From: a candidate division FCPU426 bacterium
GTDB lineage: Bacteria; Oederibacteriota; Muellerivitia; Muellerivitales; Muellerivitaceae
DNA: 64,000 nucleotides
NCBI GenBank assembly: GCA_963738405.1
Contig: CAVTWJ010000011.1
Coordinates: 1 to 64,000 of the forward strand
Reading direction: 5' to 3'
A model generated the notes under the pieces. It saw only the letters and a program-made list of their open reading frames with translations, did no database searches and was not told where the DNA came from. Below, one piece after another: positions 33,740-51,377 of the stretch. The number at the start of each line of letters is the position of its first letter. Position 1 is the first letter of the stretch. A program made the translations under genes and the position numbers.

Positions 33740-35442
33740 AAATTCACATTTTTTGCTTATTGGCACTGACGGCAGGGACTGTTTTAGCGCAAGAATTGCC
33801 CAATCTGAATGGAAAACCTCTTTTTGTTCCGGGTGAAATTCTGGTTCGGCTCAAGAACGGAATTGTTGAGGCGGACAAGTCCCGTGTTTTAGGCGCGAAA
33901 GCACTGACTTCGACTACCTTTGAACCGGCAACTGGGGTTTACCGTATGGAGTTGGGGTCGGGGGAAGATGTTCGAGCCAGGGTTGATCTGCTGAAGAATG
34001 ATCCCGCAGTGGATTTAGCCCAGCCCAACTATTACTACTATGCGTCGGCATGTGATCCTACCACTGTAATGGATACCTACTATGCCGCTCCATACTATTG
34101 GCCACTCCAGAAAATATCAGCTCCCCAAGCATGGAACCTGTTCTCGAATTGTTCACTTTCGCCGACCGGCAGTGCTGTCACAATAGCGATTTTAGACACG
34201 GGTTTTTATGGTTCTCACCCTGATTTTTCTACTTTGGCTCCTGGGCCTGTTACCAATTGTATTTCCGATCAAGCGTCGAATGATGTTAGCGATAAATTTG
34301 GTCATGGTACCTACGTTGCGGGAATTATCGCGGCCCAATGGGGCATTTCATCGGGATACTCTTGTCCGTCCTCGGGTTTTACCACAGGCATGAAAGGGTT
34401 GTCTCCCAATGTTGTTTTGATGCCGATACGTGTTCTCGACGCCTGCGGAAGAGGAACCTCGGCTCAAATCGCGGCCGGCACCCTCTTTGCGGTCAATCAT
34501 GGCGCGCGCGTGCTCAATTTTTCACTCGGCGGGGCTGGGACCGACAGCTTGGAACAGGGTGCCATCCAACAGGCCTTATCGTCCGGCTGTGTGGTGGTAG
34601 CGGCAGCGGGAAACGAATCGAATCTCCCCCAATCGGTCGCTCCTATAAATTATCCGGCGGCCTATCCAGGCGTCATCTCGGTCGGAGCCACGGACGCCAA
34701 TGACAAGGTGGCCTTTTATTCGAACGGCGGTACGGGGTTAGACCTGGTGGCTCCAGGAGGATCCGCGGTGACGGGGTCTTCTGTCTCTATTCTTGCGGCA
34801 TCGGACATTTTCAGTACCCTACTTTGCCCTCTGCCGGCTCCATGCCCGGGGGTAAAATCATCCGATTTTATTGAGGATCCCTCGACTCCTTTTGGCGTGG
34901 CTTCTGGAACCTCCGCGGCTGCTCCCTATGTCACGGCGACGGCGGCGCTGATCTTTTCAATGTATCCCAATATGACCAATACGCAGGTGGCGGATGCCAT
35001 CATCAACAATACCGATAGTCTCAATAACAACACCGGCTGGGACGCTCAATCGGGCTATGGCCGGTTGAATGTTTTTAAAGCTCTCCTCAATGCTCAAAGT
35101 TCCATGGGGCAAATCACTACCTACCTCAAGACCTTTAACAGCCCTAACCCCTTTTATCCAGACGCGACCCCCCCCACCAATATCACCCTCGTCATGTCAT
35201 CTCCCCGACCCGTGGACCTCACTATCCGTGATTCGGGAGGAGAATTGGTTTTCCATAAAAGTTTCCCAGTGAGCGGCTTGAACAATAATCCCGCTAACCC
35301 CCAATTCAAATCCTATTACGTTTCCTGGGATGGAAGAAACGCTTCCGGCCAATTGGTGAATACCGGAGTTTATTTTTATTCCGTTACCTCCGGGGGCGTG
35401 ACAGGAAGAAACAAGATTGCCGTTGTTCGAGGCAACCCATGA
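33736..35442 (+). CDS. Secreted S8 (subtilisin-like) serine peptidase with FlgD-Ig/T9SS-like CTD
   Basis: Signal peptide; prodomain VPGEILVRLK; catalytic ILDTG, GHGT, SGTSAAAP; CTD NSPNPF..WDGRN..TGVYFY..KIAVVR. Confidence 0.92.
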   Translation: MKIHIFCLLALTAGTVLAQELPNLNGKPLFVPGEILVRLKNGIVEADKSRVLGAKALTSTTFEPATGVYRMELGSGEDVRARVDLLKNDPAVDLAQPNYYYYASACDPTTVMDTYYAAPYYWPLQKISAPQAWNLFSNCSLSPTGSAVTIAILDTGFYGSHPDFSTLAPGPVTNCISDQASNDVSDKFGHGTYVAGIIAAQWGISSGYSCPSSGFTTGMKGLSPNVVLMPIRVLDACGRGTSAQIAAGTLFAVNHGARVLNFSLGGAGTDSLEQGAIQQALSSGCVVVAAAGNESNLPQSVAPINYPAAYPGVISVGATDANDKVAFYSNGGTGLDLVAPGGSAVTGSSVSILAASDIFSTLLCPLPAPCPGVKSSDFIEDPSTPFGVASGTSAAAPYVTATAALIFSMYPNMTNTQVADAIINNTDSLNNNTGWDAQSGYGRLNVFKALLNAQSSMGQITTYLKTFNSPNPFYPDATPPTNITLVMSSPRPVDLTIRDSGGELVFHKSFPVSGLNNNPANPQFKSYYVSWDGRNASGQLVNTGVYFYSVTSGGVTGRNKIAVVRGNP

Positions 35443-36431
35443 AGGATTTTGTTTCAATGGGGCTGGCGTTTTTTTTCCTGATATTTGGATTTTTACCTAC
35501 GGCACTTTTGGCTTCGGGCGGTCAAAGGCCCGATGCTTACCTGGAATATGGAGTGGGAGGGGTCCCTGAAGCCATGGCAGGGGCCGCGGCCGCCTCCAGG
35601 GACGATCCTTCCTGCGGGTTTTGGAACCCCGCGGGTTTAACCGGAATTAAAAATATCGAGGTCGAGGCGCAGAATTCTTTTCTTTCGCTCAATCAGACGT
35701 TGGATTATTTCTCCATCGGCGCGAACCTTCAGGACAAGATTTACTGCGGGTTAACGCTCCTGGCTTACAGCGCGGGAAACGATTTGGAAGCGCGGAGCGG
35801 TCCCTCCTTGAATCCGGATAGTGCTTTCGGGGATTCGGAAATTGCGGGCCTGGTTTCTGGTGCCTTTCGCTTGAGTCCCAGATGGTCGGCGGGGTTCAAC
35901 CTAAAACTTCTTCTCAATAGCTTGGGCTCTATTCAAAACGCTGGAGGAACCGGTTTTGGGTTTGATCTGGGACTGCAATATCGAGTCGATAACGACACAA
36001 CCCTTGGTCTTGCCGCCCAGGACCCCTACACGGTTTTCACTTATCAAAATTCAATTACGACTGTCATTCCCATGACCTTGCGTTGCGGGGTGAATCGTTG
36101 GGTCGAGAGCCTTCAAGGGACGGGCGCCTTTGATTTGGAATGGAGTCAGGACCTTGGGTTTAGGCCCCGACTTGGCTTGGAATGGTTTCCGTTTGAAATT
36201 TTGGCTCTTCGGGGAGGGGCTTGGCTCGGCGATTTGACCTCGACTGGAACCGGGGCCCAGCCCAATCTCAACTTGACTTGTGGTGTTGGCTTTATTATTC
36301 CTCTTCATTCTTCAATGTTGGTTAGAAATTCCGAATCCGACCAGATTCTCATTGATTATTCGCTTTTGCCTGACCCTCAAGTGACCGGAGCGGTTCTTCA
36401 GCAGATAGCGGTTTCAGGAAAGTTTAATTAG
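35439..36431 (+). CDS. PorV/PorQ-like (FadL-fold) outer-membrane beta-barrel
   Basis: N-terminal YLEYGVG..AMAGA..DD.S..FWNPAGL signature; amphipathic strands; terminal GKFN. Confidence 0.78.
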   Translation: MKDFVSMGLAFFFLIFGFLPTALLASGGQRPDAYLEYGVGGVPEAMAGAAAASRDDPSCGFWNPAGLTGIKNIEVEAQNSFLSLNQTLDYFSIGANLQDKIYCGLTLLAYSAGNDLEARSGPSLNPDSAFGDSEIAGLVSGAFRLSPRWSAGFNLKLLLNSLGSIQNAGGTGFGFDLGLQYRVDNDTTLGLAAQDPYTVFTYQNSITTVIPMTLRCGVNRWVESLQGTGAFDLEWSQDLGFRPRLGLEWFPFEILALRGGAWLGDLTSTGTGAQPNLNLTCGVGFIIPLHSSMLVRNSESDQILIDYSLLPDPQVTGAVLQQIAVSGKFN

Positions 36432-37328: not shown

Positions 37329-37400
37329 GCACTTTGGGGAATTTCGTTTTTCCGTTAAAACTGTATAATCCCTGAAAATTCTGCCCAATTTCAGTTTTGA

Positions 37401-40400
37401 ATGGCTTTCATGACGCGGCTTAAGTTACCTATCCCAGTCCTTTTGACTACTTTTTTATTGGGGTTTGCCCAGTTTTCCCTCCACGCCCAGTGCCTTGTCT
37501 CGGATACTTTTAATAACGAAATCTCACCTTCTTGGTCCGTGTCGGAAATAGGAGCCGCCACAGGTGGCGCCACGGTCCTGGGTTCGGCATTGACGTTAAC
37601 AAGCACCGATCCTGGAATGCCGGGAGGCGTTGGAACGGTGTCGGACTCTTTTTATTATCTTTATCAATCTTCAACCGGTGATCCGGAAGTAACACTTCAA
37701 ATTGACACCATGCCGTCCACAAGTGGAGCGCTATTGGGTTTGATGTTTCGAAATAGTCCGGATGCCGGGGATGTTTTTGCCTTTGTGGGCGCCTCAACAA
37801 CCTCAGCGGGCTCCGGCAAATTTTTTATGATGTCACGAATAGTCCCAGACGGTGATACAAGCTTTAATACCATTGGTGGCAATTGGACGAATGGATCTCC
37901 CGTTTATGTCCGGATGGTCAAGGCGGGCTCCTCATTTAACGCTTACTATTCCATTGATGGCAGTGCGTGGAGCAATCTAACGACCGTCAGCCCGAACTTC
38001 AATTCATCGCCTTTCGAGGTTGGAGTGGCGCTGGCCTCAGCCAATACCATCACCGGCGATACCGGTTCGGTAAGCAACTTCAATGTTTTATCTGGGTTTT
38101 GTACCCCGACGCCTACTTTGACGTTGACACCCTCACCATCTCCCACGGCTACTCCTTCTCCCACGAATTCCATAACCGATACCTTTACTTTAACCCAAAC
38201 CCCGACTTTCACCTTGACGCAGACACCAACCGACACTACGACATTCACAACAACGCCGACGCCGTATGTTTTAAGCGTGGCGACAGTAACCGGAACTCCG
38301 GCCGATTCGACGCAGATACCCGGGACTCAAAACGTGGGGATCATGCAGTTCAGCGTGAACAACCCGGGAACTGCCGGGACGACGATATTTGGGTTTGTCT
38401 TGCAGTCGGTGGGGGACGGCGCCCAGATTTCGGAGGTCAATCTTCTGCAAGGAGGGGTTGGAGGGTCGCCTTTGGTGAGTAAGGCTTACGGCGGGTCGGG
38501 CTTGGTGACCTTGGGCGGAGGGCCATTGACGGTGTTGGGTAATGGGACGGTGACTTATGGTGTGAGCTATAACTTCCAGCCGAACGCTTCAACGGGCAGC
38601 TACAGTGTTTCATTGACAGGTTTAAGGGGTTTGGATGATACAGGACAAGTACTGCAAGTGAATGGGGCGCCCCTTGGAGGCGCCATGATTAATATTGTTC
38701 TGCCAACCTCGACTCCAACGGCCACTCCGACCGCTACCTTAACCACCACCCCCACCTACACCCTTACCGATACATCTACTTTTACCAAGACTGAAACCCA
38801 AACCTTTACGGAAACTCCAACCCCAACGGATACATTGACTTGGACCCAGACCCAAACACCTATTGACACACCGACCTTTACGCAAACGGCCACACCAACC
38901 TTTACACAGACTGCAACCCCCACGGATACGCAGACCGCTACGCCGACTTTTACGCAAACCGCCACACCAACGGAAACACAGACGGCCACTCCGACAGATA
39001 CACCGACTGCGACAGCAACCTTTACGCAGACGGCGACCCCGACCTTTACCCAGACTGAAACCCCGACCTTTACGCAGACCGCCACGCCTACCTTCACGCA
39101 AACGGCCACCACGACCTCGACGGCGACGGTGACGCCGACGGTGGCACTGGCGCTTTCGTGGAACAATCAACCGGTCAGTCAGACCTATCTTTTCAATCAG
39201 ACCAACGTTTCAAGCCTGCAGTTGGTGCTTACCTCCACGGCGCAGGAGAACGTGGTAGTGAAGCAGTTGGCGTTTACGGGCGGGGGGAGCCTGAACTGGA
39301 GCACGGACGTGGTGGCGGGGAGCGTGAGGCTGTACCAGGACGCCTCGGGGAATGGGCTTTATTCCGCGGGGACGGACACACTTCTCATGGGAGGACAGAG
39401 TTTCAACGCATCGGGGTCGGTGACCTTCCAGAACGTTAACGGGGTAACGGCGCCCTTGGCGTCGGGAGCGCCCCAGACTTTCCTGCTGGTATTTGACCTG
39501 AATATGTCGGGATTGGCGACCAAGAACTTCTCGAACCTTTTGGCGAATTCCGGGATCACGGCCAATGGGCAGACAACGGGCCAGGCGGCCATCCTGTCGG
39601 GAGGGCCGGTCGGAGGGATTCTGCACACGGTATCGGCCGCGACGGCGACGCCGACGGTGACAACCACCTCGACGCCGACTGCAACAGCAACCTTTACGCA
39701 GACGGCAACTCCTACGGATACCCAGACGGCCACGCCCACTCATACACAGACAGAGACGCCTACGTTCAGCCAAACGGCCACTCCTACGACGACACCGACC
39801 TTTACGCAAACCGCTACCTCTACGGATACACCAACGGCGACACAGACCTTTACCCAGACGGCGACCCCAACGGATACATTGACTTGGACCCAGACCCAAA
39901 CACCTACTGACACACCGACCTTTACGCAAACGGCCACACCAACCTTTACACAGACTGCAACCCCCACGGATACGCAGACCGCTACGCCGACTTTTACGCA
40001 AACCGCCACACCAACGGAAACACAGACGGCCACTCCGACAGATACACCGACTGCGACAGCAACCTTTACGCAGACGGCGACCCCGACCTTTACCCAGACT
40101 GAAACCCCGACCTTTACGCAGACCGCCACGCCTACCTTCACGCAAACGGCCACCACGACCTCGACGGCGACGGTGACGCCGACGGTGGCACTGGCGCTTT
40201 CGTGGAACAATCAACCGGTCAGTCAGACCTATCTTTTCAATCAGACCAACGTTTCAAGCCTGCAGTTGGTGCTTACCTCCACGGCGCAGGAGAACGTGGT
40301 AGTGAAGCAGTTGGCGTTTACGGGCGGGGGGAGCCTGAACTGGAGCACGGACGTGGTGGCGGGGAGCGTGAGGCTGTACCAGGACGCCTCGGGGAATGGG

Positions 40401-43400
40401 CTTTATTCCGCGGGGACGGACACACTTCTCATGGGAGGACAGAGTTTCAACGCATCGGGGTCGGTGACCTTCCAGAACGTTAACGGGGTAACGGCGCCCT
40501 TGGCGTCGGGAGCGCCCCAGACTTTCCTGCTGGTATTTGACCTGAATATGTCGGGATTGGCGACCAAGAACTTCTCGAACCTTTTGGCGAATTCCGGGAT
40601 CACGGCCAATGGGCAGACAACGGGCCAGGCGGCCATCCTGTCGGGAGGGCCGGTCGGAGGGATTCTGCACACGGTATCGGCCGCGACGGCGACGCCGACG
40701 GTGACAACCACCTCGACGCCGACTGCAACAGCAACCTTTACGCAGACGGCAACTCCTACGGATACCCAGACGGCCACGCCCACTCATACACAGACAGAGA
40801 CGCCTACGTTCAGCCAAACGGCCACTCCTACGACGACACCGACCTTTACGCAAACCGCTACCTCTACGGATACACCAACGGCGACACAGACCTTTACCCA
40901 GACGGCGACCCCAACGGATACATTGACTTGGACCCAGACCCAAACACCTACTGACACACCGACCTTTACGCAAACGGCCACACCAACCTTTACACAGACT
41001 GCAACCCCCACGGATACGCAGACCGCTACGCCGACTTTTACGCAAACCGCCACACCAACGGAAACACAGACGGCCACTCCGACAGATACACCGACTGCGA
41101 CAGCAACCTTTACGCAGACGGCGACCCCGACCTTTACCCAGACTGAAACCCCGACCTTTACGCAGACCGCCACGCCTACCTTCACGCAAACGGCCACCAC
41201 GACCTCGACGGCGACGGTGACGCCGACGGTGGCACTGGCGCTTTCGTGGAACAATCAACCGGTCAGTCAGACCTATCTTTTCAATCAGACCAACGTTTCA
41301 AGCCTGCAGTTGGTGCTTACCTCCACGGCGCAGGAGAACGTGGTAGTGAAGCAGTTGGCGTTTACGGGCGGGGGGAGCCTGAACTGGAGCACGGACGTGG
41401 TGGCGGGGAGCGTGAGGCTGTACCAGGACGCCTCGGGGAATGGGCTTTATTCCGCGGGGACGGACACACTTCTCATGGGAGGACAGAGTTTCAACGCATC
41501 GGGGTCGGTGACCTTCCAGAACGTTAACGGGGTAACGGCGCCCTTGGCGTCGGGAGCGCCCCAGACTTTCCTGCTGGTATTTGACCTGAATATGTCGGGA
41601 TTGGCGACCAAGAACTTCTCGAACCTTTTGGCGAATTCCGGGATCACGGCCAATGGGCAGACAACGGGCCAGGCGGCCATCCTGTCGGGAGGGCCGGTCG
41701 GAGGGATTCTGCACACGGTATCGGCCGCGACGGCGACGCCGACGGTGACAACCACCTCGACGCCGACTGCAACAGCAACCTTTACGCAGACGGCCACGCT
41801 GACCTTTACACAAACGGCGACACTGACCTTTACGCAAACCCAAACACCTACAGACACCCAGACCGCAACACAAACTTTCACGCAGACAGCTACGCCTACG
41901 TTCACCCAAACGGCCACCCCTACGGATACACCAACGGCGACAGCAACCTTTACGCAGACGGCGACTCCTACGGATACCCAGACGGCCACCCCCACCTTTA
42001 CCCAGACGGCCACGCCGACCTTTACGCAAACGGCCACCCCAACAGATACACCGACTGCGACAGCAACCTTTACGCAAACGGCTACACCGACCTTTACACA
42101 AACCGCCACCCAAACCTTTACGCAAACAGCCACGCCAACCTTTACACAGACTCAGACGCCGACCTTCACCCAGACCGCCACGCCGACCCAGACGCAAACG
42201 GCCACCACGACCTCGACGGCGACGGTGACGCCGACGGTGGCACTGGCACTTTCGTGGAACAATCAACCGGCCAGTCAGACCTATCTTTTCAACCAGAACA
42301 ACGTTTCAAGCGTGCAGTTCATCCTGGAGTCAACGGCACAGGAGAACGTGTTGGTTAAACAACTAGTGTTAACCGGAGGGGGAAGCCTGGGTTGGAGCAC
42401 GGACGTGGTGGCGGGGAGCGTGAGGCTGTACCAGGACGCCTCGGGGAATGGGCTTTATTCCGCGGGGACGGACACACTTCTCATGGGAGGACAGAGTTTC
42501 AACGCATCGGGGTCGGTGACCTTCCAGAACGTTAACGGGGTAACGGCGCCCCTGGTGTCGGGAGCTCCCCAGACATTCCTTATTATATTTGACCTGAATA
42601 TGACGGGGCTGACGACCAAGAACTTCTCGAACAGCCTAGCCGTAGGCGGAATCACGGCCAATGGGCAGACAACAGGCCAGGCGGCCATCCTGTCGGGAGG
42701 CCCGATCACAGGAAATCTGCATACGGTATCAGCCGCGACGGCAACGCCAACGGTAACGACTACATCCACACCCACATCAACACCGACCTTTACTCAGACC
42801 CAAACTCCCACCTTTACCCAGACGGCCACTCCGACCTTTACCCAAACTCAAACGCCTACAGACACCCCCACCTACACCCAAACTACTACCCCTACCTTTA
42901 CCCAAACCTACACTCCCACCTTCACCCAAACGGCAACACCGACTGATACCCAGACGGCAACCCAAACCTATACTCAAACCGCAACGCCCACCTTCACCCA
43001 AACGGCCACTCCCACCGTCACCCAGACCCATACGGCCACCTTCACCCAAACGGCAACACCGACTGATACCCAGACGGCAACTACGACTTCAACTCAAACG
43101 GCCACCCCTACAGCCACTCAGACCCACACTCCAACTTTCACGCAGACGGCCACGCCTACCGTTACAGCAACATTCACTCAAACCGCGACAACGACTTCTA
43201 CCGCCACGGTCACGCCAACTCCCACCGCAACCTTCCAGCCGCCAGTCTCGCTAGCCATTCTTCCTGTTACAAGTTCTCTAATAGCCGGACCCGCTGGAGC
43301 GCCCTTAACCGTTGAAGCCTTAAATACTTCTGGTTTTCCGGCTACCCTTCAAACAGCTTTGACCTTGAGCTTGACTTCAACTTCAACGGGACAGAACGCC

Positions 43401-44708
43401 TTTTCGTTTAGTTCCGCCGGAGCCCCGATACAAACGGTCAACTTGTTAGCTGGCTCGGTAGCTCAAGCCCAGGTTTACTACAGCGACTACAAGGCAGGTA
43501 CATGGAATTTGACACTTTCGGGATCGGGTTACAGCGCCGCCTCTACCCTCGTGACGGTCATTCCCGGCCCTTATAACGGGCTCCAAGTTCTATTGCCCGG
43601 ACAAACCGCCGATCCTGGACAGCCAACCGCCGATCACTTAGGACGCATTGGAAACCCCGCGGCCCAGGCGGCTGGGTCACCCGTGCAAGTTACCCTTAAC
43701 GCGGTAGACGCCTATTTCAACCCGATAACTTCCAACAATGATTTTGTGACGTTGGTTTCGTCTGATCCGGCGATGCCAGCCGGTGGGTCGGTCAACCTGG
43801 TCAACGGAACGGGCTCAAAGCCTGTAACCTTTTACAGCCCGGGGAACCAGTCTGTCACCGCAACGGATGGAACAAAGAATGGAGTCAGCGACCTCTTAAC
43901 CGTTCAGGGTGGCACCACTAGCACACTTTTGAATGTTGTTCACAATTCTCCGGCGCTTTCAGGTCAAGGCTTGGGGGCGGTTGGGGTAACCTTTATGACA
44001 TTCCGGTTGACGGTTGGGAGCGGGACGGACCCCATCCAGTTGAATAACCTGGTCGTGCACGCGAGAGATTCAAATGGAACGGATGTGCCGTTCAATACAG
44101 CCCTTCAAAGCCTGTCCGTGTCCTCGGGCTCGCAAACGATAGTGACGTCTATGACCACGGTGAATTCGGCCATTGTCACCTTGGGCGCCTTTCCTACAGG
44201 AACCTTCCTGGTAAATCCTGGAACCCCCGTGACTCTGGTTTTGTCCGCTGATATTTCCTCCGGAGCCACGGCGAGCAGTCTTTCATTGAGCTTGGACGCC
44301 GCAGGATCGGTTGCGGCTATCGATTCCGTATCACCCTTTCCGCCCGTGGCGGTCGTCAGTTCGGGCGATCCTACCGGGTTCCCCATGTCGTCTGGGGTGC
44401 TTATCCTTGAGCCGGCAGACGTGGCGAAAACATTTGGCAACTATCCCAACCCCTTCCGCCCGGATGTCGAAAACACCACGATTGAATTTTATTTGCCAGC
44501 CCCCGCCAACGTTTCGCTGGTTTTGTATGATGTTCTTGGGAACAAGGTCTTGACGCTCTTAAACAGCCAAAACCTTCCCGCGGGCCTTCAACGCGAGATT
44601 TGGACCGGCCGAAACGGTGTGGGTTCCCAGGTACTGAGCGGAGTTTATTACGCCCAGCTCACCGTGAATGGAACGAATTATCTTTTGAAAGTGGCGGTGG
44701 TTAAATAG
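37401..44708 (+). CDS. 2435-aa secreted adhesin-like protein: ConA/DUF1349-like N-domain, four repeated Ig-like domains on Thr-rich linkers, FlgD-Ig/T9SS-like CTD
   Basis: Signal peptide; GLMFRNS..RMVKAGSSFNAYYSIDG; repeated LYQDASGNG domain; CTD NYPNPF..WTGRN..SGVYY..KVAVVK. Confidence 0.88.
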   Translation: MAFMTRLKLPIPVLLTTFLLGFAQFSLHAQCLVSDTFNNEISPSWSVSEIGAATGGATVLGSALTLTSTDPGMPGGVGTVSDSFYYLYQSSTGDPEVTLQIDTMPSTSGALLGLMFRNSPDAGDVFAFVGASTTSAGSGKFFMMSRIVPDGDTSFNTIGGNWTNGSPVYVRMVKAGSSFNAYYSIDGSAWSNLTTVSPNFNSSPFEVGVALASANTITGDTGSVSNFNVLSGFCTPTPTLTLTPSPSPTATPSPTNSITDTFTLTQTPTFTLTQTPTDTTTFTTTPTPYVLSVATVTGTPADSTQIPGTQNVGIMQFSVNNPGTAGTTIFGFVLQSVGDGAQISEVNLLQGGVGGSPLVSKAYGGSGLVTLGGGPLTVLGNGTVTYGVSYNFQPNASTGSYSVSLTGLRGLDDTGQVLQVNGAPLGGAMINIVLPTSTPTATPTATLTTTPTYTLTDTSTFTKTETQTFTETPTPTDTLTWTQTQTPIDTPTFTQTATPTFTQTATPTDTQTATPTFTQTATPTETQTATPTDTPTATATFTQTATPTFTQTETPTFTQTATPTFTQTATTTSTATVTPTVALALSWNNQPVSQTYLFNQTNVSSLQLVLTSTAQENVVVKQLAFTGGGSLNWSTDVVAGSVRLYQDASGNGLYSAGTDTLLMGGQSFNASGSVTFQNVNGVTAPLASGAPQTFLLVFDLNMSGLATKNFSNLLANSGITANGQTTGQAAILSGGPVGGILHTVSAATATPTVTTTSTPTATATFTQTATPTDTQTATPTHTQTETPTFSQTATPTTTPTFTQTATSTDTPTATQTFTQTATPTDTLTWTQTQTPTDTPTFTQTATPTFTQTATPTDTQTATPTFTQTATPTETQTATPTDTPTATATFTQTATPTFTQTETPTFTQTATPTFTQTATTTSTATVTPTVALALSWNNQPVSQTYLFNQTNVSSLQLVLTSTAQENVVVKQLAFTGGGSLNWSTDVVAGSVRLYQDASGNGLYSAGTDTLLMGGQSFNASGSVTFQNVNGVTAPLASGAPQTFLLVFDLNMSGLATKNFSNLLANSGITANGQTTGQAAILSGGPVGGILHTVSAATATPTVTTTSTPTATATFTQTATPTDTQTATPTHTQTETPTFSQTATPTTTPTFTQTATSTDTPTATQTFTQTATPTDTLTWTQTQTPTDTPTFTQTATPTFTQTATPTDTQTATPTFTQTATPTETQTATPTDTPTATATFTQTATPTFTQTETPTFTQTATPTFTQTATTTSTATVTPTVALALSWNNQPVSQTYLFNQTNVSSLQLVLTSTAQENVVVKQLAFTGGGSLNWSTDVVAGSVRLYQDASGNGLYSAGTDTLLMGGQSFNASGSVTFQNVNGVTAPLASGAPQTFLLVFDLNMSGLATKNFSNLLANSGITANGQTTGQAAILSGGPVGGILHTVSAATATPTVTTTSTPTATATFTQTATLTFTQTATLTFTQTQTPTDTQTATQTFTQTATPTFTQTATPTDTPTATATFTQTATPTDTQTATPTFTQTATPTFTQTATPTDTPTATATFTQTATPTFTQTATQTFTQTATPTFTQTQTPTFTQTATPTQTQTATTTSTATVTPTVALALSWNNQPASQTYLFNQNNVSSVQFILESTAQENVLVKQLVLTGGGSLGWSTDVVAGSVRLYQDASGNGLYSAGTDTLLMGGQSFNASGSVTFQNVNGVTAPLVSGAPQTFLIIFDLNMTGLTTKNFSNSLAVGGITANGQTTGQAAILSGGPITGNLHTVSAATATPTVTTTSTPTSTPTFTQTQTPTFTQTATPTFTQTQTPTDTPTYTQTTTPTFTQTYTPTFTQTATPTDTQTATQTYTQTATPTFTQTATPTVTQTHTATFTQTATPTDTQTATTTSTQTATPTATQTHTPTFTQTATPTVTATFTQTATTTSTATVTPTPTATFQPPVSLAILPVTSSLIAGPAGAPLTVEALNTSGFPATLQTALTLSLTSTSTGQNAFSFSSAGAPIQTVNLLAGSVAQAQVYYSDYKAGTWNLTLSGSGYSAASTLVTVIPGPYNGLQVLLPGQTADPGQPTADHLGRIGNPAAQAAGSPVQVTLNAVDAYFNPITSNNDFVTLVSSDPAMPAGGSVNLVNGTGSKPVTFYSPGNQSVTATDGTKNGVSDLLTVQGGTTSTLLNVVHNSPALSGQGLGAVGVTFMTFRLTVGSGTDPIQLNNLVVHARDSNGTDVPFNTALQSLSVSSGSQTIVTSMTTVNSAIVTLGAFPTGTFLVNPGTPVTLVLSADISSGATASSLSLSLDAAGSVAAIDSVSPFPPVAVVSSGDPTGFPMSSGVLILEPADVAKTFGNYPNPFRPDVENTTIEFYLPAPANVSLVLYDVLGNKVLTLLNSQNLPAGLQREIWTGRNGVGSQVLSGVYYAQLTVNGTNYLLKVAVVK
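38821..41795 (+). repeat. Near-perfect intragenic tandem repeat, period 1044 bp (348 aa), ~2.85 copies, plus a diverged fourth domain at ~42195-42750
   Basis: Identical blocks begin at 38821, 39865 and 40909; identical alternative-frame ORFs recur at 39158, 40202 and 41246; only one difference noticed (ATT vs ACT in copy 1). Confidence 0.95.
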
Positions 44709-46339
44709 TGAAAACTAACCGTCAAATTCTAAATTTAGGAGCGGCCATCTTTCTGGCTTGGATGGGGGTCCGGTCGGCTGTTCTCGGGCAGACCGCCGAG
44801 ACCGGTGGCGTGGTGGATCCATTCGAGCTTGGAGCTTCGGCAAGGATTTTGGGGATGGGAAACGCTGGGGTGGCCCTCACGGGGGATGGGGCCGGCTTTC
44901 TTCAAAATCCAGCACTTCTTTCCACCGTTAACCAGGATGAGCTGTTGACCTTTCACTCGCCTCTTTTCGTGGATACCCTTTATGACAGTGTTGGATTGGC
45001 CCTTCCGCTCTCTGGTTCCTCGGGCGTGGCGCTGAGCCTTTCCCGGCTTGGTGTGGATAATCTTTTTCTGACCCAAACCAATATTCAGCCGAGTTCAACC
45101 TTTTCCACTCAGGAATGGGAGGCGACGATCAGCCTCGGAGCTGAGATTTATCCGGGATTGGGAATGGGCATCCTCATGAAAGGGATTCAAGAGCAGATCG
45201 CCAATTATCAAGGAGAAGGGGTTGGCATGGACGCGGGAATGATTTACCGGTTCGCCCAATCCCGATTAGACTACTCGAAAATCGGGATTTTGAATTTAGA
45301 TTTGGGTTTGGCGGTCGCGAACTTAATACCTCCCCAGGTAACCCTTTTTCAGACCCCGGACAATCCAGCCGAGATTATCAAGCCCTCTGTCGGATACCGT
45401 TATGATATTTCGCAAAATGGCGACCGGTTGTGGATGGTTTTGGAAGGAGAGTTGACCCAGGGGGGGAGCAATCTGGTAAAGGCGGGGGCCGAATATTGTT
45501 TTCAAAATACCTTTTTTGTCCGGGCGGGGTTTGACGGCGTGAGTCCCACGGCGGGCGCTGGAGTGAGCCTAGCGGGCTTTGAGCTGGATTATGCCTATAA
45601 CCAAAGGGATTTGGGGACACTTCACCGTTTTTCCCTGGCTTACCGTTTCGGGGAATACCTGGATCCGGTTAGGGCCCAAAAGCTGGATCTTTTGAAATGG
45701 GTTGCCAGAAACTATGACCAGGACAATGATTACCCGGCGGCGCTGAAAGCTTGGACGGATGTTCAAAAAGAGGAACCTGATGACCTTGAAGCTCCGAAGG
45801 CGATCGAAAACCTTAAACAGCGCCGAGCCCAAGAGGTGGAGCTGCTCATGAAACAAGCCCGTCCCGCCATGCAAAAGGGCGATTATGCCAAGGGTGTGCC
45901 GCTTTTAGGGAAAGTGTTAGCCCTTGACCCAAGTAATTCTGAGGCCAAATCCCTGCTCCGGCATGTGGACAACCACATGGTTCTTGAAACCGACTATCTG
46001 GCTGGAGTGGAGGCCTACCGCCACGAAAACTATAAGGAAGCGGCCGATTATTTGGGAGAGGTCTACGATACCGATCCCAATTACCGGGACACGTCGGTCC
46101 TGTACCGTGACGCTCAAAGCCGGTTCCAACCTCTTGAGACCCTGCCAAAGGATCTTTCCGATCTATATTCTCAAGGTGTGGAATTTTATCTGAAAGGCCA
46201 GTATGCGCAAGCCATCTCGGTTTGGCAGAAGGTATTGGCCCGTTCTCCCAAAAACAGGCTGGTCGAAAGAAACCTGGAAGAGGCTCGAAGCCGATTGGGC
46301 GATTCCGTCCCCATTCCCCAAGCGACGGAGGCCCCGTGA
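44708..46339 (+). CDS. PorV/PorQ-like beta-barrel fused to C-terminal TPR repeats
   Basis: ELGASARILGMGNA..NPALL signature; barrel end LGTLHRFSLAYRFG; then TPR helices (VLALDPSNSEA, YLKGQYAQAISVWQKVL). Confidence 0.8.
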   Translation: MKTNRQILNLGAAIFLAWMGVRSAVLGQTAETGGVVDPFELGASARILGMGNAGVALTGDGAGFLQNPALLSTVNQDELLTFHSPLFVDTLYDSVGLALPLSGSSGVALSLSRLGVDNLFLTQTNIQPSSTFSTQEWEATISLGAEIYPGLGMGILMKGIQEQIANYQGEGVGMDAGMIYRFAQSRLDYSKIGILNLDLGLAVANLIPPQVTLFQTPDNPAEIIKPSVGYRYDISQNGDRLWMVLEGELTQGGSNLVKAGAEYCFQNTFFVRAGFDGVSPTAGAGVSLAGFELDYAYNQRDLGTLHRFSLAYRFGEYLDPVRAQKLDLLKWVARNYDQDNDYPAALKAWTDVQKEEPDDLEAPKAIENLKQRRAQEVELLMKQARPAMQKGDYAKGVPLLGKVLALDPSNSEAKSLLRHVDNHMVLETDYLAGVEAYRHENYKEAADYLGEVYDTDPNYRDTSVLYRDAQSRFQPLETLPKDLSDLYSQGVEFYLKGQYAQAISVWQKVLARSPKNRLVERNLEEARSRLGDSVPIPQATEAP

Positions 46340-49185
46340 TTCTGGATCGTTTATTCCTCAACTTGCTTTTTATAACTACCCCGGATTCCAAGCGCCGCCA
46401 GTTTAGGCTGGAAGTACCAGCCCAGGAATTGGAGCTCTTGACGATTAAGGATTTTGTCCAGCGGGTTTGTGATTCGGCCGGCTGTTCACAAAAAGAAACA
46501 TCCGGTATCAAACTGGCCATTGATGAAGCCTGTACGAACATTGTCCGTCACGCCTACCGCGGAAAAGGGGATGGGAAAATTCTATTGGAAATGGGGATCG
46601 GCCTCGGGGACCTCAAAACCAAGATCACTGATTACGGCAAACCCTTTGACTTTAAGGGCATCAAAGATCCGGATCTCAACCGTTATGTCGATATCGGCAA
46701 AAAAGGCGGCTTGGGGATTTGGCTGATCCGAAAGGTCATGTCCCGCGTCACTTACAAAGCCTATTCGGACCGCAACGAATTGGTGATGTACAAGAGCCTT
46801 TCGAAGGCTCCCCCGCCTCAATTAGGACTGAAGAAGGGAGCTGTTTCAGTTTCCATCAAATTTACCGTGGGTGCCGTGCTTTTAGTAGCCATTCTTTTCA
46901 TCACCTTTTATTTTTCCCTGAGCCGTCGTCAAGAAGCTGACGCCCTTAAACAACAGCGTGAGAACGTGAATTTGGTGCTTGGCTCCCTCGCTTCCCAATC
47001 GGGCCAATCGGTATCCCGTAAAGACGATTTAGGACTGGAAAATCTTGTCCGTCAAGTGAAGGCGCAGGATACGGGCAAGATGCTCGATTACGTCTTTATT
47101 GTGGGCTCTGAAGGTTTGTTTTTGGCCCACTCGGATATTCAACAGATCCTGCATCCCTACCAGCCCCCTCCCGGCGCCCGCCTTAAGCCCAAGGGCGGAA
47201 TCCAAGCTTTTCAATTTCAAACCCCCGAGGGGGGAGTCAGCGATTACGGGTCTCCGATTTATTACCGCGGGCAATTTGTGGGGGAAGTGCACGTGGGGAT
47301 CACCGATACGACCCTTCGTAGGGCTGACCGGCGCATCAAAAGTGAAATTCAAGGACAGCTCCTATTCGCTTCTGTTTTCATCATGTTGGCGCTCTGGATA
47401 TTGTCCCGCATCGTGATTCATCCCTTCCGAAAGATTTTGGATGGAGTGAACGCCATGTCCGCAGGCGATATGAACGCGAAAATCGATTTGGACACCCAGG
47501 ATGAATTCGGCCAATTGGCGGGTATTTTCAATGAAATGACCAACAAACTTCAGGAATCCCAAAAAGGAATGGTGGAAACGGAGCGGATGCAGAAAGAAAT
47601 GCAGGTCGCTCAGCAGATCCAGCATACCCTTTTACCCGCGGATTTTCCCCAGGTGGAGGGCTATGAGATTGGCGCTACCTATCGGGCCGCCAAGGAAGTC
47701 GGCGGCGACTATTACGACTTTTTCTGGGTGGACCCCACCACTTTGGGGATCGTGGTGGCGGACGTGTCGGGTAAGGGCGTGCCCGGCTCCATGGTGATGA
47801 CCATGATCCGTACCGCCATGCGTCTTGAGGCGCGCGGCAATAAGAGCGCCTCGGACGTGCTGGGAAAGGTCAACCGGCACGTGACTTCGGACATGAAAAA
47901 GGGAATGTTTGTCACCATGTTTTATATCATCCTGGATTCACGCACCCGGGCCATTAATTTCGCCAGCGCGGGCCACAACCCTATGATTCTTTATCGGGGC
48001 GAAACCCAAGAAGTTTATTTCCTCAAACCCAAGGGTTTCCCCGTCGGAATCGATCTTCCCGAAGATGACATGTTCGCTAAAAGCTTAGCCCTGCAAAAGG
48101 TGAGTCTGGAAAAGAACGATATGCTGGTGATCTACACCGACGGCATCACCGAAGCCATGAACGCCGAAAAGGACCAATACGGCGAGGCGAGACTGATCCA
48201 GGTGATCAAGGACAATTCTCATTTGACGCCCCAGGAATTCGTCGAGCAATTGAATCTTTCAATAGCCCAATTCACCAAGGGCGCGGAACAAAACGACGAC
48301 ATCACCGTGGTCGCCATTAAGGAAAAGATGCATGCCGAATCGGTGGAATACAAATTCAGAAAAAAACTATTGGAGCTGGTCGAAAAGAAGGGGCTTTCAG
48401 TGGTTGAAGCCTGCCGGCAGATGAATGTATCGACAAAGGCTTACTACCGGTTCAAGAAGATGCTCGCCGAAAAGGGGAAAAAGGGACTTCGGCCCATGAG
48501 GTCAGAGCGCAAGGGGGGCATTCGTGAACTGACCTTGCCCCAAAGGGACGCCTTAATGGCCTTGCTGTGCAAGAACCCCGAATTGGGGCCTCAAAGGCTT
48601 TCCGAGACGCTTAAGAAGATGGTGCCTCCCATTCGGGTAGAAGCCCGGCTGATTTATGAACATTTGAAACGGAAGAACTTGAGTACGGCGAACCAGAGAA
48701 AAGCCTTTTCTTCCCTTTCGGCCGAAGATACGGGAAGCCAAACAGAGGGGGATTCTCAAGCGTCTGAGGATGCCACCGATCAAATACAAGTAAAAAAAAA
48801 TGACGGGATTGGCGCGGGATCGTCCCAGCCCAAGCGGAAGGGCGTCAAACGGCAGTTGACGGCGCCCCAGAAAGAAGCCTTGATGAAGGTTCTTTGCCGG
48901 AACCCTGAATTCGACGCGTTGAAACTCTCCGAGGTCCTGCGGACGGATATGACGCCTTCCATTCGAGTGAAGGCCGGATTGATCTCGGATCATTTGAAGC
49001 GAAAGAATTTGAGTACCGTGGATCAACGGAAAGCTTTTGCCCTTATCTCGGGCGTGGAGGAGCGTCATCAGATGGAAGAAAATGCCAGGCCGGCTGATGC
49101 TTCCGCCGGTTCCATCGAGAGCGGCAATAGAGTTATTGACGCCGGCGGGGTCTCGGTTGACACGGAGAAACCTGAAAGCCCATAA
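46336..49185 (+). CDS. Membrane fusion protein: RsbW-like Ser kinase (HATPase) + 2TM sensor + HAMP + SpoIIE/PP2C phosphatase + transposase-type HTH domains
   Basis: LAIDEACTNIVRHAY, DYGKPFD, GGLGIWLI; two TM; HAMP DEFGQLA; VGGDYYD, ADVSGKG, SAGH, YTDG, DDIT; SVVEACRQMNVS..YYRFKK; GTGA overlap with the upstream gene. Confidence 0.9.
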   Translation: MILDRLFLNLLFITTPDSKRRQFRLEVPAQELELLTIKDFVQRVCDSAGCSQKETSGIKLAIDEACTNIVRHAYRGKGDGKILLEMGIGLGDLKTKITDYGKPFDFKGIKDPDLNRYVDIGKKGGLGIWLIRKVMSRVTYKAYSDRNELVMYKSLSKAPPPQLGLKKGAVSVSIKFTVGAVLLVAILFITFYFSLSRRQEADALKQQRENVNLVLGSLASQSGQSVSRKDDLGLENLVRQVKAQDTGKMLDYVFIVGSEGLFLAHSDIQQILHPYQPPPGARLKPKGGIQAFQFQTPEGGVSDYGSPIYYRGQFVGEVHVGITDTTLRRADRRIKSEIQGQLLFASVFIMLALWILSRIVIHPFRKILDGVNAMSAGDMNAKIDLDTQDEFGQLAGIFNEMTNKLQESQKGMVETERMQKEMQVAQQIQHTLLPADFPQVEGYEIGATYRAAKEVGGDYYDFFWVDPTTLGIVVADVSGKGVPGSMVMTMIRTAMRLEARGNKSASDVLGKVNRHVTSDMKKGMFVTMFYIILDSRTRAINFASAGHNPMILYRGETQEVYFLKPKGFPVGIDLPEDDMFAKSLALQKVSLEKNDMLVIYTDGITEAMNAEKDQYGEARLIQVIKDNSHLTPQEFVEQLNLSIAQFTKGAEQNDDITVVAIKEKMHAESVEYKFRKKLLELVEKKGLSVVEACRQMNVSTKAYYRFKKMLAEKGKKGLRPMRSERKGGIRELTLPQRDALMALLCKNPELGPQRLSETLKKMVPPIRVEARLIYEHLKRKNLSTANQRKAFSSLSAEDTGSQTEGDSQASEDATDQIQVKKNDGIGAGSSQPKRKGVKRQLTAPQKEALMKVLCRNPEFDALKLSEVLRTDMTPSIRVKAGLISDHLKRKNLSTVDQRKAFALISGVEERHQMEENARPADASAGSIESGNRVIDAGGVSVDTEKPESP

Positions 49186-49223
49186 TGAAACATCTATCGG
49201 TTTTTTATTAATCTGGAGGAGTC

Positions 49224-49586
49224 ATGGACAATATCACGGTCAATGTGGCCGACCATTCCAATCATAAAGACATTGTTGTTTTGACGGTTAAAGGGTTTAT
49301 TGACACCACAACGGCCCCGGAATTCGAGAAAAAATTCCTGGGCGTCTTAAATGAGAAAAAATATAAACTGCTTGTGGATCTCAAGGACGTGAATTACATC
49401 AGTTCCGCGGGCTGGGGCATTTTTATCAGCGAAATTAAACGGATCCGGGCTCAAAAGGGAGACTTAGTTTTGGTCGGCATGAACCCCGAGGTGGGGGAAG
49501 TGTTTGAGCTTTTGGAATTCAATTCAATCCTGAAATCCTATCCTAATGTTGAGTTGGCCCTGAAAAAGGGATTCGAAAAATCATAA
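49224..49586 (+). CDS. STAS-domain anti-sigma factor antagonist (RsbV/SpoIIAA-like)
   Basis: GFIDTTTAPEF, VDLKDVNYISSAG phospho-Ser motif; GGAGG RBS. Confidence 0.93.
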   Translation: MDNITVNVADHSNHKDIVVLTVKGFIDTTTAPEFEKKFLGVLNEKKYKLLVDLKDVNYISSAGWGIFISEIKRIRAQKGDLVLVGMNPEVGEVFELLEFNSILKSYPNVELALKKGFEKS

Positions 49587-49669
49587 AGGAGACTCCGGGC
49601 TTGGGAGGGAATCGGGATTCCGATTTGCTTTTTACCACAAGGATTTGAAGATCCGGAAAATGGACCCCT

Positions 49670-50812
49670 ATGGACGGCAACACTCTTAACTCGCTTCTGG
49701 AAATCAACGGAAAGCATTTTGCCGTCGAAAGCAGCCTACCCCAGGGCAAGAACCGGGTCCTTTCAATGGCCCAACTGGAAGGAAGAATCCTTTCCCAGCG
49801 CGAATTTGAGATGCCGGATGGATTGGATGAGGACAACCGTAAACGGTTTCTCCAGGATACCCACAAAAACCGTCTCGTCGAGTTGGAATCCATTTTTAGG
49901 CTTAACCGCAAAATAGACGAAAAGCCCACCCCTGACGCCTGCTGGAAAATAGGGGTTATTTTCTTGTCCAATGGTTTTTACGAGGACGCCCGCCAGCGGT
50001 TTTTAAAATCCATGGAAATGGATCCCCAGCATCTTCAAGCGCTTAAATGCTACGGGATCAACCTGACGCTTCAGGAAGATTACGATGGCGCCTTGGCCAT
50101 TCTTAACCGCGCCAAGGAATTGGGACCATCATTCGCCGACATTTATTACCATCTTGGCAATGTTCACCTTTACCGCAGGGAATTGGATGAAGCGGTCCAA
50201 TCTTATCTCCAAGCTCTCCAGATCAATCCTCGTTATGCGGATGCCAGGCTGCGCCTCGCGACAGCCTGCGTGGGATATTTGACGATCGGGGATATGAGCG
50301 TCAGTGACTCGGAAAAAACAGCGGAATTGGCCGAAAGGGCGAAAACGGAGGCGGAAACGGCTGCGACCCTGAATCCCAAACTGCGCAACCGCGCCTTCAT
50401 GATGGCGACCGATTACCTGAAAAGCCGAAGGTATTCCAACGCTTTTCAAACCTTTTTGGGGGTGCGGCCTAAATTTGTCCCGCGGATCGGCGACGAGATC
50501 ATTTTTTTCTTCACGCTGACGCTTCTTTATGGGAGCGAGGGAATCGATTTGCAGATGACGGAGCAGTACATAGAAAAATTATCAAAAGTCATCGAAGAAT
50601 ATCCCCATTACGCCGATCTTCACCACCATCTGGGAGTGGCTTACTTGATCAAATGCCGGTTTGATGTGAGCCGGTCCCTTAAAGAATTCAAAAAGGCTCT
50701 GGATATCAACCCTCAGTTCCAGAAAGCCTTAACCAACGCGGCCGATACCGAGGATTTGCACCGTCGCGTGCTGGTTTCTTTGAAAAAGGCGATTATTACA
50801 AAAGGAAATTGA
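49670..50812 (+). CDS. TPR-repeat protein
   Basis: Multiple TPRs (FADIYYHLGNV, ALQINPRYADA, YADLHHHLGVAY); no signal peptide. Confidence 0.85.
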   Translation: MDGNTLNSLLEINGKHFAVESSLPQGKNRVLSMAQLEGRILSQREFEMPDGLDEDNRKRFLQDTHKNRLVELESIFRLNRKIDEKPTPDACWKIGVIFLSNGFYEDARQRFLKSMEMDPQHLQALKCYGINLTLQEDYDGALAILNRAKELGPSFADIYYHLGNVHLYRRELDEAVQSYLQALQINPRYADARLRLATACVGYLTIGDMSVSDSEKTAELAERAKTEAETAATLNPKLRNRAFMMATDYLKSRRYSNAFQTFLGVRPKFVPRIGDEIIFFFTLTLLYGSEGIDLQMTEQYIEKLSKVIEEYPHYADLHHHLGVAYLIKCRFDVSRSLKEFKKALDINPQFQKALTNAADTEDLHRRVLVSLKKAIITKGN

Positions 50813-50878: not shown

Positions 50879-51259
50879 TTATTCTTCGGGAACGGTGCTG
50901 AGGGAGTAGTGCTTTTCGAGAAAATTGACCTGATCCAGGGTTGGATTTTCAAAATTGATCCCGTAAGCGAATCTCCCCATCGTCTTCATGGGGTTTTTTC
51001 TGGCCCAAACGACCTTGCCAGGAAAAGTCACGGCATGGCTTCCGTCAATGGAATCAAACTCAAGGATCAAATCCGTTTTGTCATTCATGGTTTTGTTGGA
51101 ATAAATTTGGGCTCCGGTCGAGCTAACATTGACCAGTTGGGCGCGGAAGGTGTCTCCCTGCGCTGAATTCAAGACACGGCCCTTGATGGATTTCACCATC
51201 ACGACCCTTTGGTTGGTTCTCTTGAAGCCTTCAGGATGAGGCCGGGGAATCTTTTTCAT
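50879..51259 (-). CDS. Single-domain PilZ (c-di-GMP-binding) protein
   Basis: RTNQR (RxxxR) and NVSSTG (D/NxSxxG) motifs, GKVVW, YGINF; GGAG RBS before ATG at 51259. Confidence 0.85.
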   Translation of the reverse strand: MKKIPRPHPEGFKRTNQRVVMVKSIKGRVLNSAQGDTFRAQLVNVSSTGAQIYSNKTMNDKTDLILEFDSIDGSHAVTFPGKVVWARKNPMKTMGRFAYGINFENPTLDQVNFLEKHYSLSTVPEE

Positions 51260-51377
51260 TTTGGTTCTCCAGGTCGTTTTATCGTTATAGCATATCATTC
51301 GTTTCCGCCTCTTGGGCGATAAAAATCCCATAAGATGGGATTCCATTTTAAGCATGGAAGAAGAGGTTTGTTTTTAT

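Follow-up and report, generated by a model that had tools for sequence, protein, structure and literature searches.

A PorV-family barrel with a periplasmic TPR arm as predicted partner of a kinase/phosphatase sensor: an apparently undescribed variant of trans-envelope signalling in a candidate division FCPU426 bacterium

Dedicated cargo-barrel pairs, switches of the SypE/SypA kind in which a Ser kinase and a phosphatase act on a STAS protein, and relays from the outer to the inner membrane are all already known. Here we describe a locus in which such parts lie together, in a 64,000-nucleotide stretch of DNA (the window) from a candidate division FCPU426 bacterium: a giant secreted cargo protein with a type IX secretion system (T9SS) C-terminal domain (CTD), a PorV-family outer-membrane barrel with a periplasmic tetratricopeptide repeat (TPR) arm, an inner-membrane sensor, a STAS protein and a further TPR protein, called TPR380. 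The window is contig C11 of the genome that we label G000; other G and L numbers are labels of compared genomes and loci, and the cited papers are drawn on in excerpts of their text.

SypE is a response regulator with a REC input domain. In Vibrio fischeri it combines Ser kinase and phosphatase in one protein for the STAS protein SypA, the target of which is given as unknown (PMC8256260, PMC10120452). The window sensor likewise joins the two enzymes in one chain, with a linked STAS protein bearing a serine motif as its likely output; unlike SypE, it has no REC domain and carries two transmembrane (TM) helices in the order TM-sCache-TM-HAMP, an IS481-like helix-turn-helix (HTH) tail and a tie to an outer-membrane barrel. 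To our knowledge, no barrel or CTD cargo belongs to the SiaABCD system. In Pseudomonas aeruginosa the Sia phosphatase, kinase and substrate control biofilm via a diguanylate cyclase (PMC7647112, PMC8457831). The SiaA model matches the window sensor at E 6e-20 and a GGDEF gene occurs in Zixibacteria loci; however, the Sia kinase and phosphatase are separate, and the window sensor reaches 71 bits against the SiaA cut-off of 700. Unlike the canonical RsbU/V/W switch, the window locus holds no cognate sigma factor, although a distant target is possible (13 sigma70 region-2 matches lie elsewhere in the genome), and, unlike in TonB-receptor/FecR/ECF signalling, the five proteins contain no TonB-dependent transducer, FecR-type anti-sigma or ECF sigma domain.

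Among the T9SS carriers, PorV carries type A CTD cargo (PMC10994853), PorP/SprF occurs with type B cargo next to it and with PorE (PMC12618676, PMC9143113), and PorE has a TPR domain (PMC12773672). The window locus shares with them the PorV fold, a CTD cargo gene that immediately precedes the gene of its own barrel and a periplasmic TPR partner, but it pairs a type A-like CTD with a dedicated barrel and has the TPR arm fused to that barrel; the cited excerpts mention no signalling role of the carriers. The FadL/PorV-like proteins TP0548, TP0859 and TP0865 of Treponema pallidum likewise have 14 strands in the barrel and, at the C-terminus, a helical TPR extension in the periplasm; they are proposed transporters handing substrate to a TRAP system (PMC8407342); unlike the window barrel, they have no link to a sensor in the excerpts of that paper. 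In the PorA-PorY/PorX-SigP pathway of Porphyromonas gingivalis the cargo CTD has a histidine kinase as its periplasmic binding partner (PMC12152298), which similarly links T9SS cargo to an inner-membrane sensor; in the window, by contrast, the predicted contact is made by the barrel arm and the predicted output is Ser phosphorylation by a HATPase_c_2/SpoIIE sensor. The relays NlpE-OmpA-CpxA (bioRxiv 10.1101/2022.10.18.512811) and NsrA-CyaK/CyaD (PMC7529298, PMC13001267) resemble it in that an outer-membrane component hands a surface signal to an inner-membrane sensor, yet they use a lipoprotein or a large barrel with a histidine kinase or a CHASE2 cyclase, and no cargo antenna. No paper joining PorV, SpoIIE and STAS or reporting such a cluster was found in a search that most subscription papers lay outside of, which agrees with the expectation of an earlier note on this DNA that no described system has these parts. 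The module is a real and widespread variant of trans-envelope signalling, apparently undescribed; derived here are a predicted interface, a single co-loss, the division of the arm into spacer and head, and an internal promoter.

The five co-oriented genes, their two overlaps and the two short gaps read from the sequence by the earlier note were all confirmed at the exact positions by a check of the open reading frames (ORFs) of the window:

37401..44708, + strand: giant secreted cargo gene (2435 aa; signal-peptide-like N-terminus; beta-rich domains and Thr/Pro stalks; CTD at the C-terminus)
44708..46339, + strand: PorV-family barrel gene with a C-terminal periplasmic arm (543 aa; barrel at aa ~39-316)
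46336..49185, + strand: inner-membrane sensor gene (949 aa counted from the GTG start)
49224..49586, + strand: STAS gene (120 aa)
49670..50812, + strand: TPR380 gene (380 aa; no evident signal peptide; accessory)

The cargo and barrel genes overlap in TAGTG (44706-44710) and the barrel and sensor genes in GTGA (46336-46339), and gaps of 38 bp and 83 bp precede the STAS and TPR380 genes. The sensor frame is open already from a TTG at 46222, and a GGAGG lies 6 nt upstream of the GTG at 46336.

We examined 96 loci from the organism's own phylum, Krumholzibacteriota, Zixiibacteriota, Latescibacterota, Calditrichota records and metagenomes (of 80 loci from a metagenome scan, for the most part generic PP2C ones, 5 were used). 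Five were dropped, four of them at contig ends without a called kinase-bearing fusion and one a split paralogue; the loci are kin and not independent, and the counts describe the pattern only. The kinase-Cache-phosphatase fusion had a PorV-TPR gene or a TPR arm directly upstream in 87 of the remaining 91 loci, in five phyla. The barrel-TPR gene stood immediately before the sensor in 82 and a TPR-arm ORF in five (two split genes, two contig ends and one stand-alone TPR with a barrel nearby); in one locus the barrel-TPR gene lay two genes up, and three had none. The proposed conservation of gene order across phyla is thus borne out, and the barrel and the sensor form its invariant core. A CTD cargo gene immediately preceded the barrel in 52 of the 82 complete pairs. 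About 22 of the other 30 belong to one clade with short arms, the rest being apparently for the most part cut loci; in this clade only the barrel-TPR and sensor genes adjoin, between an RNase R-family gene upstream and hisD downstream, and TPR380 was not found in any of its four near-complete genomes. The five genes, which the earlier note had taken together as one system, are therefore not conserved as a unit. A cognate-type CTD is encoded elsewhere in the four short-arm-clade genomes tested (99-115 bits). Parts missing from G007, G010, G016, G021 and G023 were not scored as losses, the matches lying at or near contig ends. With models built from 26 loci of other phyla, the CTD, barrel and arm head of the window each ranked first among the paralogues of the genome (for the CTD, 1 of 75, at 78 versus 64 bits), which implies that the three travel together. 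The Zixibacteria cluster continues with genes for a ParA/BcsQ-like ATPase, STAS, a GAF-GGDEF protein and polysaccharide export of Wza type, and the sensor of Krumholzibacteriota has three STAS domains fused to it.

The barrel belongs to the PorV/PorQ family (NF033709, 99.1 bits against a cut-off of 90), with TPRs in addition; it is not PorV proper, the Bacteroidota orthologue, as it reaches 33.2 of the 250 bits set by the equivalog NF033710. A single-sequence fold was poor (predicted local distance difference test, pLDDT, 45.6), and an alignment-based AlphaFold model was used in its place (pLDDT 92.6). After 14 strands it continues into a C-terminal arm of helical hairpins, with two helices of 28-29 residues, and its closest folds were the PorV chains 8gl6_F and 6h3i_F (E 4e-13), so that the assignment of a PorV barrel with a TPR extension stands. 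Since the number of strands is even, the C-terminus would lie in the periplasm, as was assigned for the treponemal barrels (PMC8407342). The arm and the sensor domain that faces it divide as follows:

45656..45958, + strand: variable arm spacer, aa 317-417, from the alignment (TPR hairpins with long helices in the window)
45959..46300, + strand: conserved C-terminal TPR head, aa 418-531, about 115 residues aligned without gaps
46924..47358, + strand: periplasmic sCache domain of the sensor, aa 197-341, from a domain search

Depending on lineage, the arm measures about 165-330 aa, and its proximal part consists of TPRs in some lineages and of a plain charged helix of differing length in others. 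In the spacer the mean frequency of the top residue was 0.27-0.28, with many gaps; in the gap-free head it was 0.40-0.47, with Y487, G490, A502, W506, P514, N516 and N522 each at 93% or more. Conservation of the head beside a spacer that differs between lineages in length, and even in fold, is what would be expected of a spacer carrying a binding head.

The domain search of the sensor gave HATPase_c_2, sCache_3_2, HAMP, SpoIIE and HTH_32, no HisKA match, and two TM helices predicted around residues 177 and 343. The chain runs from an RsbW-like Ser kinase (aa 33-153) through TM1, sCache_3, TM2 and HAMP to a SpoIIE/PP2C domain ending at aa 662, followed by an IS481-like HTH (aa 674-789) and a second copy of its distal half; both enzymes are cytoplasmic and have no cytoplasmic input domain. 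Residues E64, N68, D99, G101, G125, G127, D458, D476, D602, D654 and D655 are invariant in the ungapped rows of a 59-row alignment. Thus, the kinase and phosphatase active sites are intact, and both are predicted to act on STAS. The STAS protein carries a YISSAG motif, nearly invariant among the STAS proteins of these loci, in which Ser61 is presumably the phosphoryl acceptor, by analogy with the motifs of RsbV and SpoIIAA. The suggested pair of opposing enzymes with a STAS substrate is accordingly matched by conserved catalytic residues and a conserved serine motif, and the STAS protein is likely to be the substrate of the sensor. A phmmer search of G000 gave a single SpoIIE-like and a single HATPase_c_2-like domain. 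A STAS paralogue at G000 C1:47400-49076, 66% identical, has a C-terminal extension and is followed by a gene of 356 aa of unknown kind; family genomes carry up to six STAS genes of this type, and therefore a single sensor may have several substrates. In other families (L291, L295, L296, L298, L301, L302 and L179) a STAS protein carries a sensor-like HTH of its own.

To assess the contact that the earlier note had proposed between the TPR tail and the periplasmic loop of the sensor, the head was co-folded with two copies of the Cache domain, using our own alignments of 83 rows each. The scores of 0.67, 0.65 and 0.67, against 0.06 for the best of three controls, passed a mark that 116 of 157 solved complexes attain, as do 2 of 215 mismatched pairs, a calibration that is only rough for own alignments and a dimer, the controls being unrelated proteins and not paralogous TPR heads. 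Between runs, at least 91% of the contacts agreed, and the partner pLDDT was 86 or more. The predicted interface comprises Y487, V491, Y494, L518, N522 and E525 of the head, of which Y487, Y494, N522 and E525 are among its conserved residues, and D231, L232, E235, N236, R239, I268, I271 and L272 of the Cache domain. Sequence searches of the PDB matched the head only to generic TPRs and the Cache domain to sensors of the DcuS type, with no like complex among the matches. The head is thus predicted to bind the tip of the Cache domain. Covariation was considered as a separate line of support and rejected: the predicted contact pairs had a mean z of 1.16, which none of 5000 random draws reached, but the contacts were taken from the same alignments with kinship kept in.

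Three genomes (G015, G017 and G072) have loci without a barrel-TPR gene, in the order UDG, sensor, TPR380, and with no STAS gene at the locus. Their sensors keep kinase, phosphatase and HTH and lack the Cache domain, which is replaced by a short loop in two and deleted with both TM helices in one. No orthologue of the head was found in these genomes (58-75 bits, against 130 for an intact relative), which still carry other PorV-family genes; neither G015 nor G017 yielded a STAS orthologue, and a cognate-type CTD was not found in G015, which is 99% complete (70 bits, against 99-115). The sensor enzymes therefore persist in Cache-less genomes without a STAS protein of the window type. The three sensors form one clade with support 100/99 (27 rows, with a long-branch warning for the outgroup), and several independent co-losses were rejected on this ground. 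The loss of Cache together with barrel-TPR is consistent with a Cache domain that needs the barrel or the cargo for its task. Separately, L286 (G071:C2) is an intact cargo-barrel-sensor unit, set apart from TPR380 and grouping with another genus in the tree; the intact unit of G071, while two congeners are Cache-less, points to transfer or a binning effect.

The reading that we favour, with confidence slightly better than even, is a relay from outside to inside. The cargo would be exported by a reduced T9SS-like route, consistent with a SprA-like gene in the genome, and held on the surface through its CTD by its own PorV-family barrel, by analogy with PorV and PorP/SprF. The spacer would bring the TPR head to the tip of the Cache domain, and docking of the cargo, or force on the long stalked cargo during adhesion, would alter this contact. 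The change could pass through TM2 and HAMP to the balance of PP2C phosphatase and RsbW-like kinase in the same chain, which would set the phosphorylation of STAS Ser61; the STAS protein would then act downstream in the style of SypA or SiaC, most likely on surface or biofilm functions. The anatomy, folds, linkage, co-loss and conserved active sites are observed and the contact of head and Cache is predicted, whereas the binding of CTD to barrel, the nature and direction of the signal and its output are inferred. Several observations weigh against this reading. In the roughly 22 loci of the short-arm clade the cargo is not adjacent, and genes for exopolysaccharides or a cyclase are absent from the window locus itself. 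On its Cache side the interface shows no more than moderate conservation, just 2 of the 20 strongest covariation pairs fall within the interface, and the head motif also ends barrel-less TPR proteins such as that at G000 C5:56065-57885 (68.5 versus 74.7 bits), a kind absent from the co-folding controls. The co-loss of Cache and barrel-TPR is a single event. Finally, a closed barrel would have to move its arm, and that arm would have to span the periplasm.

A contact of head and Cache of some kind is common to three of the readings considered. In one of these the contact would report the assembly of the barrel or the distance between the membranes, independently of the cargo, which would be a passenger or a regulated output. 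Barrel and sensor are indeed the sole invariant pair, since one clade lacks cargo, STAS and TPR380 at the locus; some paralogous sensors without a barrel (L139, L142) are preceded by stand-alone TPR proteins that bear the same head, and arm length varies by lineage. Such a gauge nevertheless appears unlikely, as the CTDs of the cargo make up an orthologous subfamily of their own, retained beside the barrel across phyla, and the cognate CTD was lost along with barrel and Cache in G015.

Rather more doubtful is the view that the genes are co-regulated neighbours without contact, the arm being a PorE-like tether or scaffold and the Cache domain binding a small molecule. CTD-barrel gene pairs are common in G000, where other barrels end in OmpA or fn3 domains, and tethering has a precedent in PorE-PorP-PG1035 (PMC9143113). 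The nearest solved relative of the Cache domain is the DcuS sensor (E 5e-4); however, the domain is poorly conserved, with a single invariant residue, a Gly, and no conserved ligand pocket is evident from the alignment. The passed co-folding and the joint loss of Cache and barrel-TPR likewise speak against this view.

LapD and LapG provide a model for control in the opposite direction, in which the state of the sensor would change its grip on the arm and thereby the display or release of the cargo. This would use the same predicted contact, the three sensor-fused STAS domains of Krumholzibacteriota could be its inputs, and in the family an S8 protease with a CTD is encoded three genes upstream of the cargo. 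We consider it improbable, since the cytoplasmic domains of the sensor are intact enzymes and not degenerate receptors, and the protease comes with a separate barrel and persists where cargo and Cache have disappeared. Feedback from secretion, with unexported cargo CTD binding the Cache domain in the periplasm, has a published precedent in PorA-PorY (PMC12152298) and agrees with the joint loss of cargo and Cache in G015, but is the least probable of all because it leaves unexplained both the conserved head and the invariant adjacency of barrel and sensor where the cargo has moved away.

The cargo sequence contains 25% Thr, and its orthologues vary from about 900 to 3000 aa. Its passenger domains had no Pfam match at the cut-off and one weak PDB match (E 4e-4). 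Two features stand out within the gene:

38864..41794, + strand: exact tandem repeat with a period of 1044 bp (348 aa), about 2.8 copies
44391..44705, + strand: cognate-type CTD, the last 105 aa of the cargo, above the cut-off of TIGR04183

The repeat includes an exact run of 1887 bases at offset 1044 and may be a recent expansion or an assembly effect. The CTD is of T9SS type A (TIGR04183, 26.1 bits against a cut-off of 23), and its profile matches the PorU CTD 6za2 (E 4.6e-6). G000 holds 75 CTD-like proteins and 18 PorV-like barrels, about 10 of which come after a CTD gene; given this abundance, a CTD-barrel pair alone is ordinary there. A SprA-like ORF of 1968 aa (G000 C20:75216-81122) matches TIGR04189 in five pieces, the best at E 1.8e-30 and below the cut-off, and is followed by a CTD protein of 1599 aa. 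No GldL, GldM, GldN or PorU was found in the genome, which is 90.7% complete, control genomes being likewise below the cut-offs and GldK not searched. With its SprA-like ORF and 75 CTD proteins, G000 possibly has a motor-less T9SS-like route. A second giant CTD protein of 2215 aa, with an SBBP propeller and DUF7948, is encoded at window 23855-30502 without an adjoining barrel gene.

Two candidate promoters were noted:

37364..37369, + strand: -10-like box TATAAT before the cargo gene (no good -35; 8/12 by consensus score)
49157..49186, + strand: sigma70-type promoter TTGACA-18-CATAAT over the 3' end of the sensor gene, ahead of STAS (11/12 match)

A box similar to the first was seen by eye ahead of the first gene in most of 11 relatives, and it is a possible, if weak, candidate for the promoter of cargo, barrel and sensor, which form a coupled unit. 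The second recurs at 11/12 in 21 of 22 loci of the family and order, the three Cache-less loci among them; the rate in shuffles is 1.9%, and in control regions 0 of 19 and 0 of 18. Of 13 from two more distant families, only 2 reach 10/12. Thus, the simple picture of a single mRNA for all five genes was not supported: to judge from the conserved promoter, STAS and TPR380 probably have a transcript of their own, and read-through from the sensor gene into them is possible.

TPR380, probably cytoplasmic, is present in 23 of 24 family genomes. In the short-arm clade (L129, L131, L303-L320) the sensor HTH scored 35-86 bits, versus 117-178 in most others; HTH and TPR380 may work together, a suggestion drawn from this one clade with a biased profile. 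Convergent with TPR380 lies a stand-alone PilZ gene (window 50879-51355, - strand), kept in most family loci, and a link to cyclic di-GMP is possible. The S8 protease gene is coupled to that of its own arm-less PorV-like barrel (window 33736-36431); the two are conserved in the family and retained where the giant cargo is lost.

Related arrangements occur beyond this locus. Among 18 hand-picked paralogous Cache-HAMP-PP2C loci of the phylum, a TPR protein lay within three genes in 14 (by a profile that also matches generic TPRs) and a PorV-like barrel in 8, usually with STAS and a separate RsbW-like gene. A second unit in G000 (C13:39820-45037, L159) encodes a CTD protein, a PorV-TPR barrel of 617 aa, a HAMP histidine kinase and an OmpR-type regulator; the periplasmic domain of this kinase gave no match to the Cache profile. 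At G000 C5:56065-60877 lie a PorV-OmpA barrel, an unknown gene and a TPR protein of 606 aa with the head motif at its end, and in L174 (G017) a similar TPR gene stands directly before a Cache-HAMP protein whose relative in G000 is an adenylate/guanylate cyclase. These loci tentatively suggest a general class, possible rather than probable, in which a cargo antenna, a PorV barrel as transducer and a spacer with head would dock on Cache-type sensors with interchangeable outputs: the kinase/phosphatase fusion, PP2C alone, or the histidine kinase of G000 C13.

PorV-family barrels are known as carriers and anchors, and here one appears to be a signal transducer in direct reach of an inner-membrane sensor. 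If so, it would add one more route to the few relays between outer and inner membrane, and would give a function to the barrel-TPR fusions of several little-studied phyla, perhaps also to those of treponemes, which are unexplained. The predicted contact involves two small soluble domains with named residues on either side, and can therefore be tested in vitro without culture of the organism. The finding bears on the sensing of surface contact by bacteria and on the output of SypA-type STAS proteins, and with the general class, if true, many uncultured diderm phyla could detect surface contact or the display of adhesins with no need of TonB, FecR or a T9SS motor.

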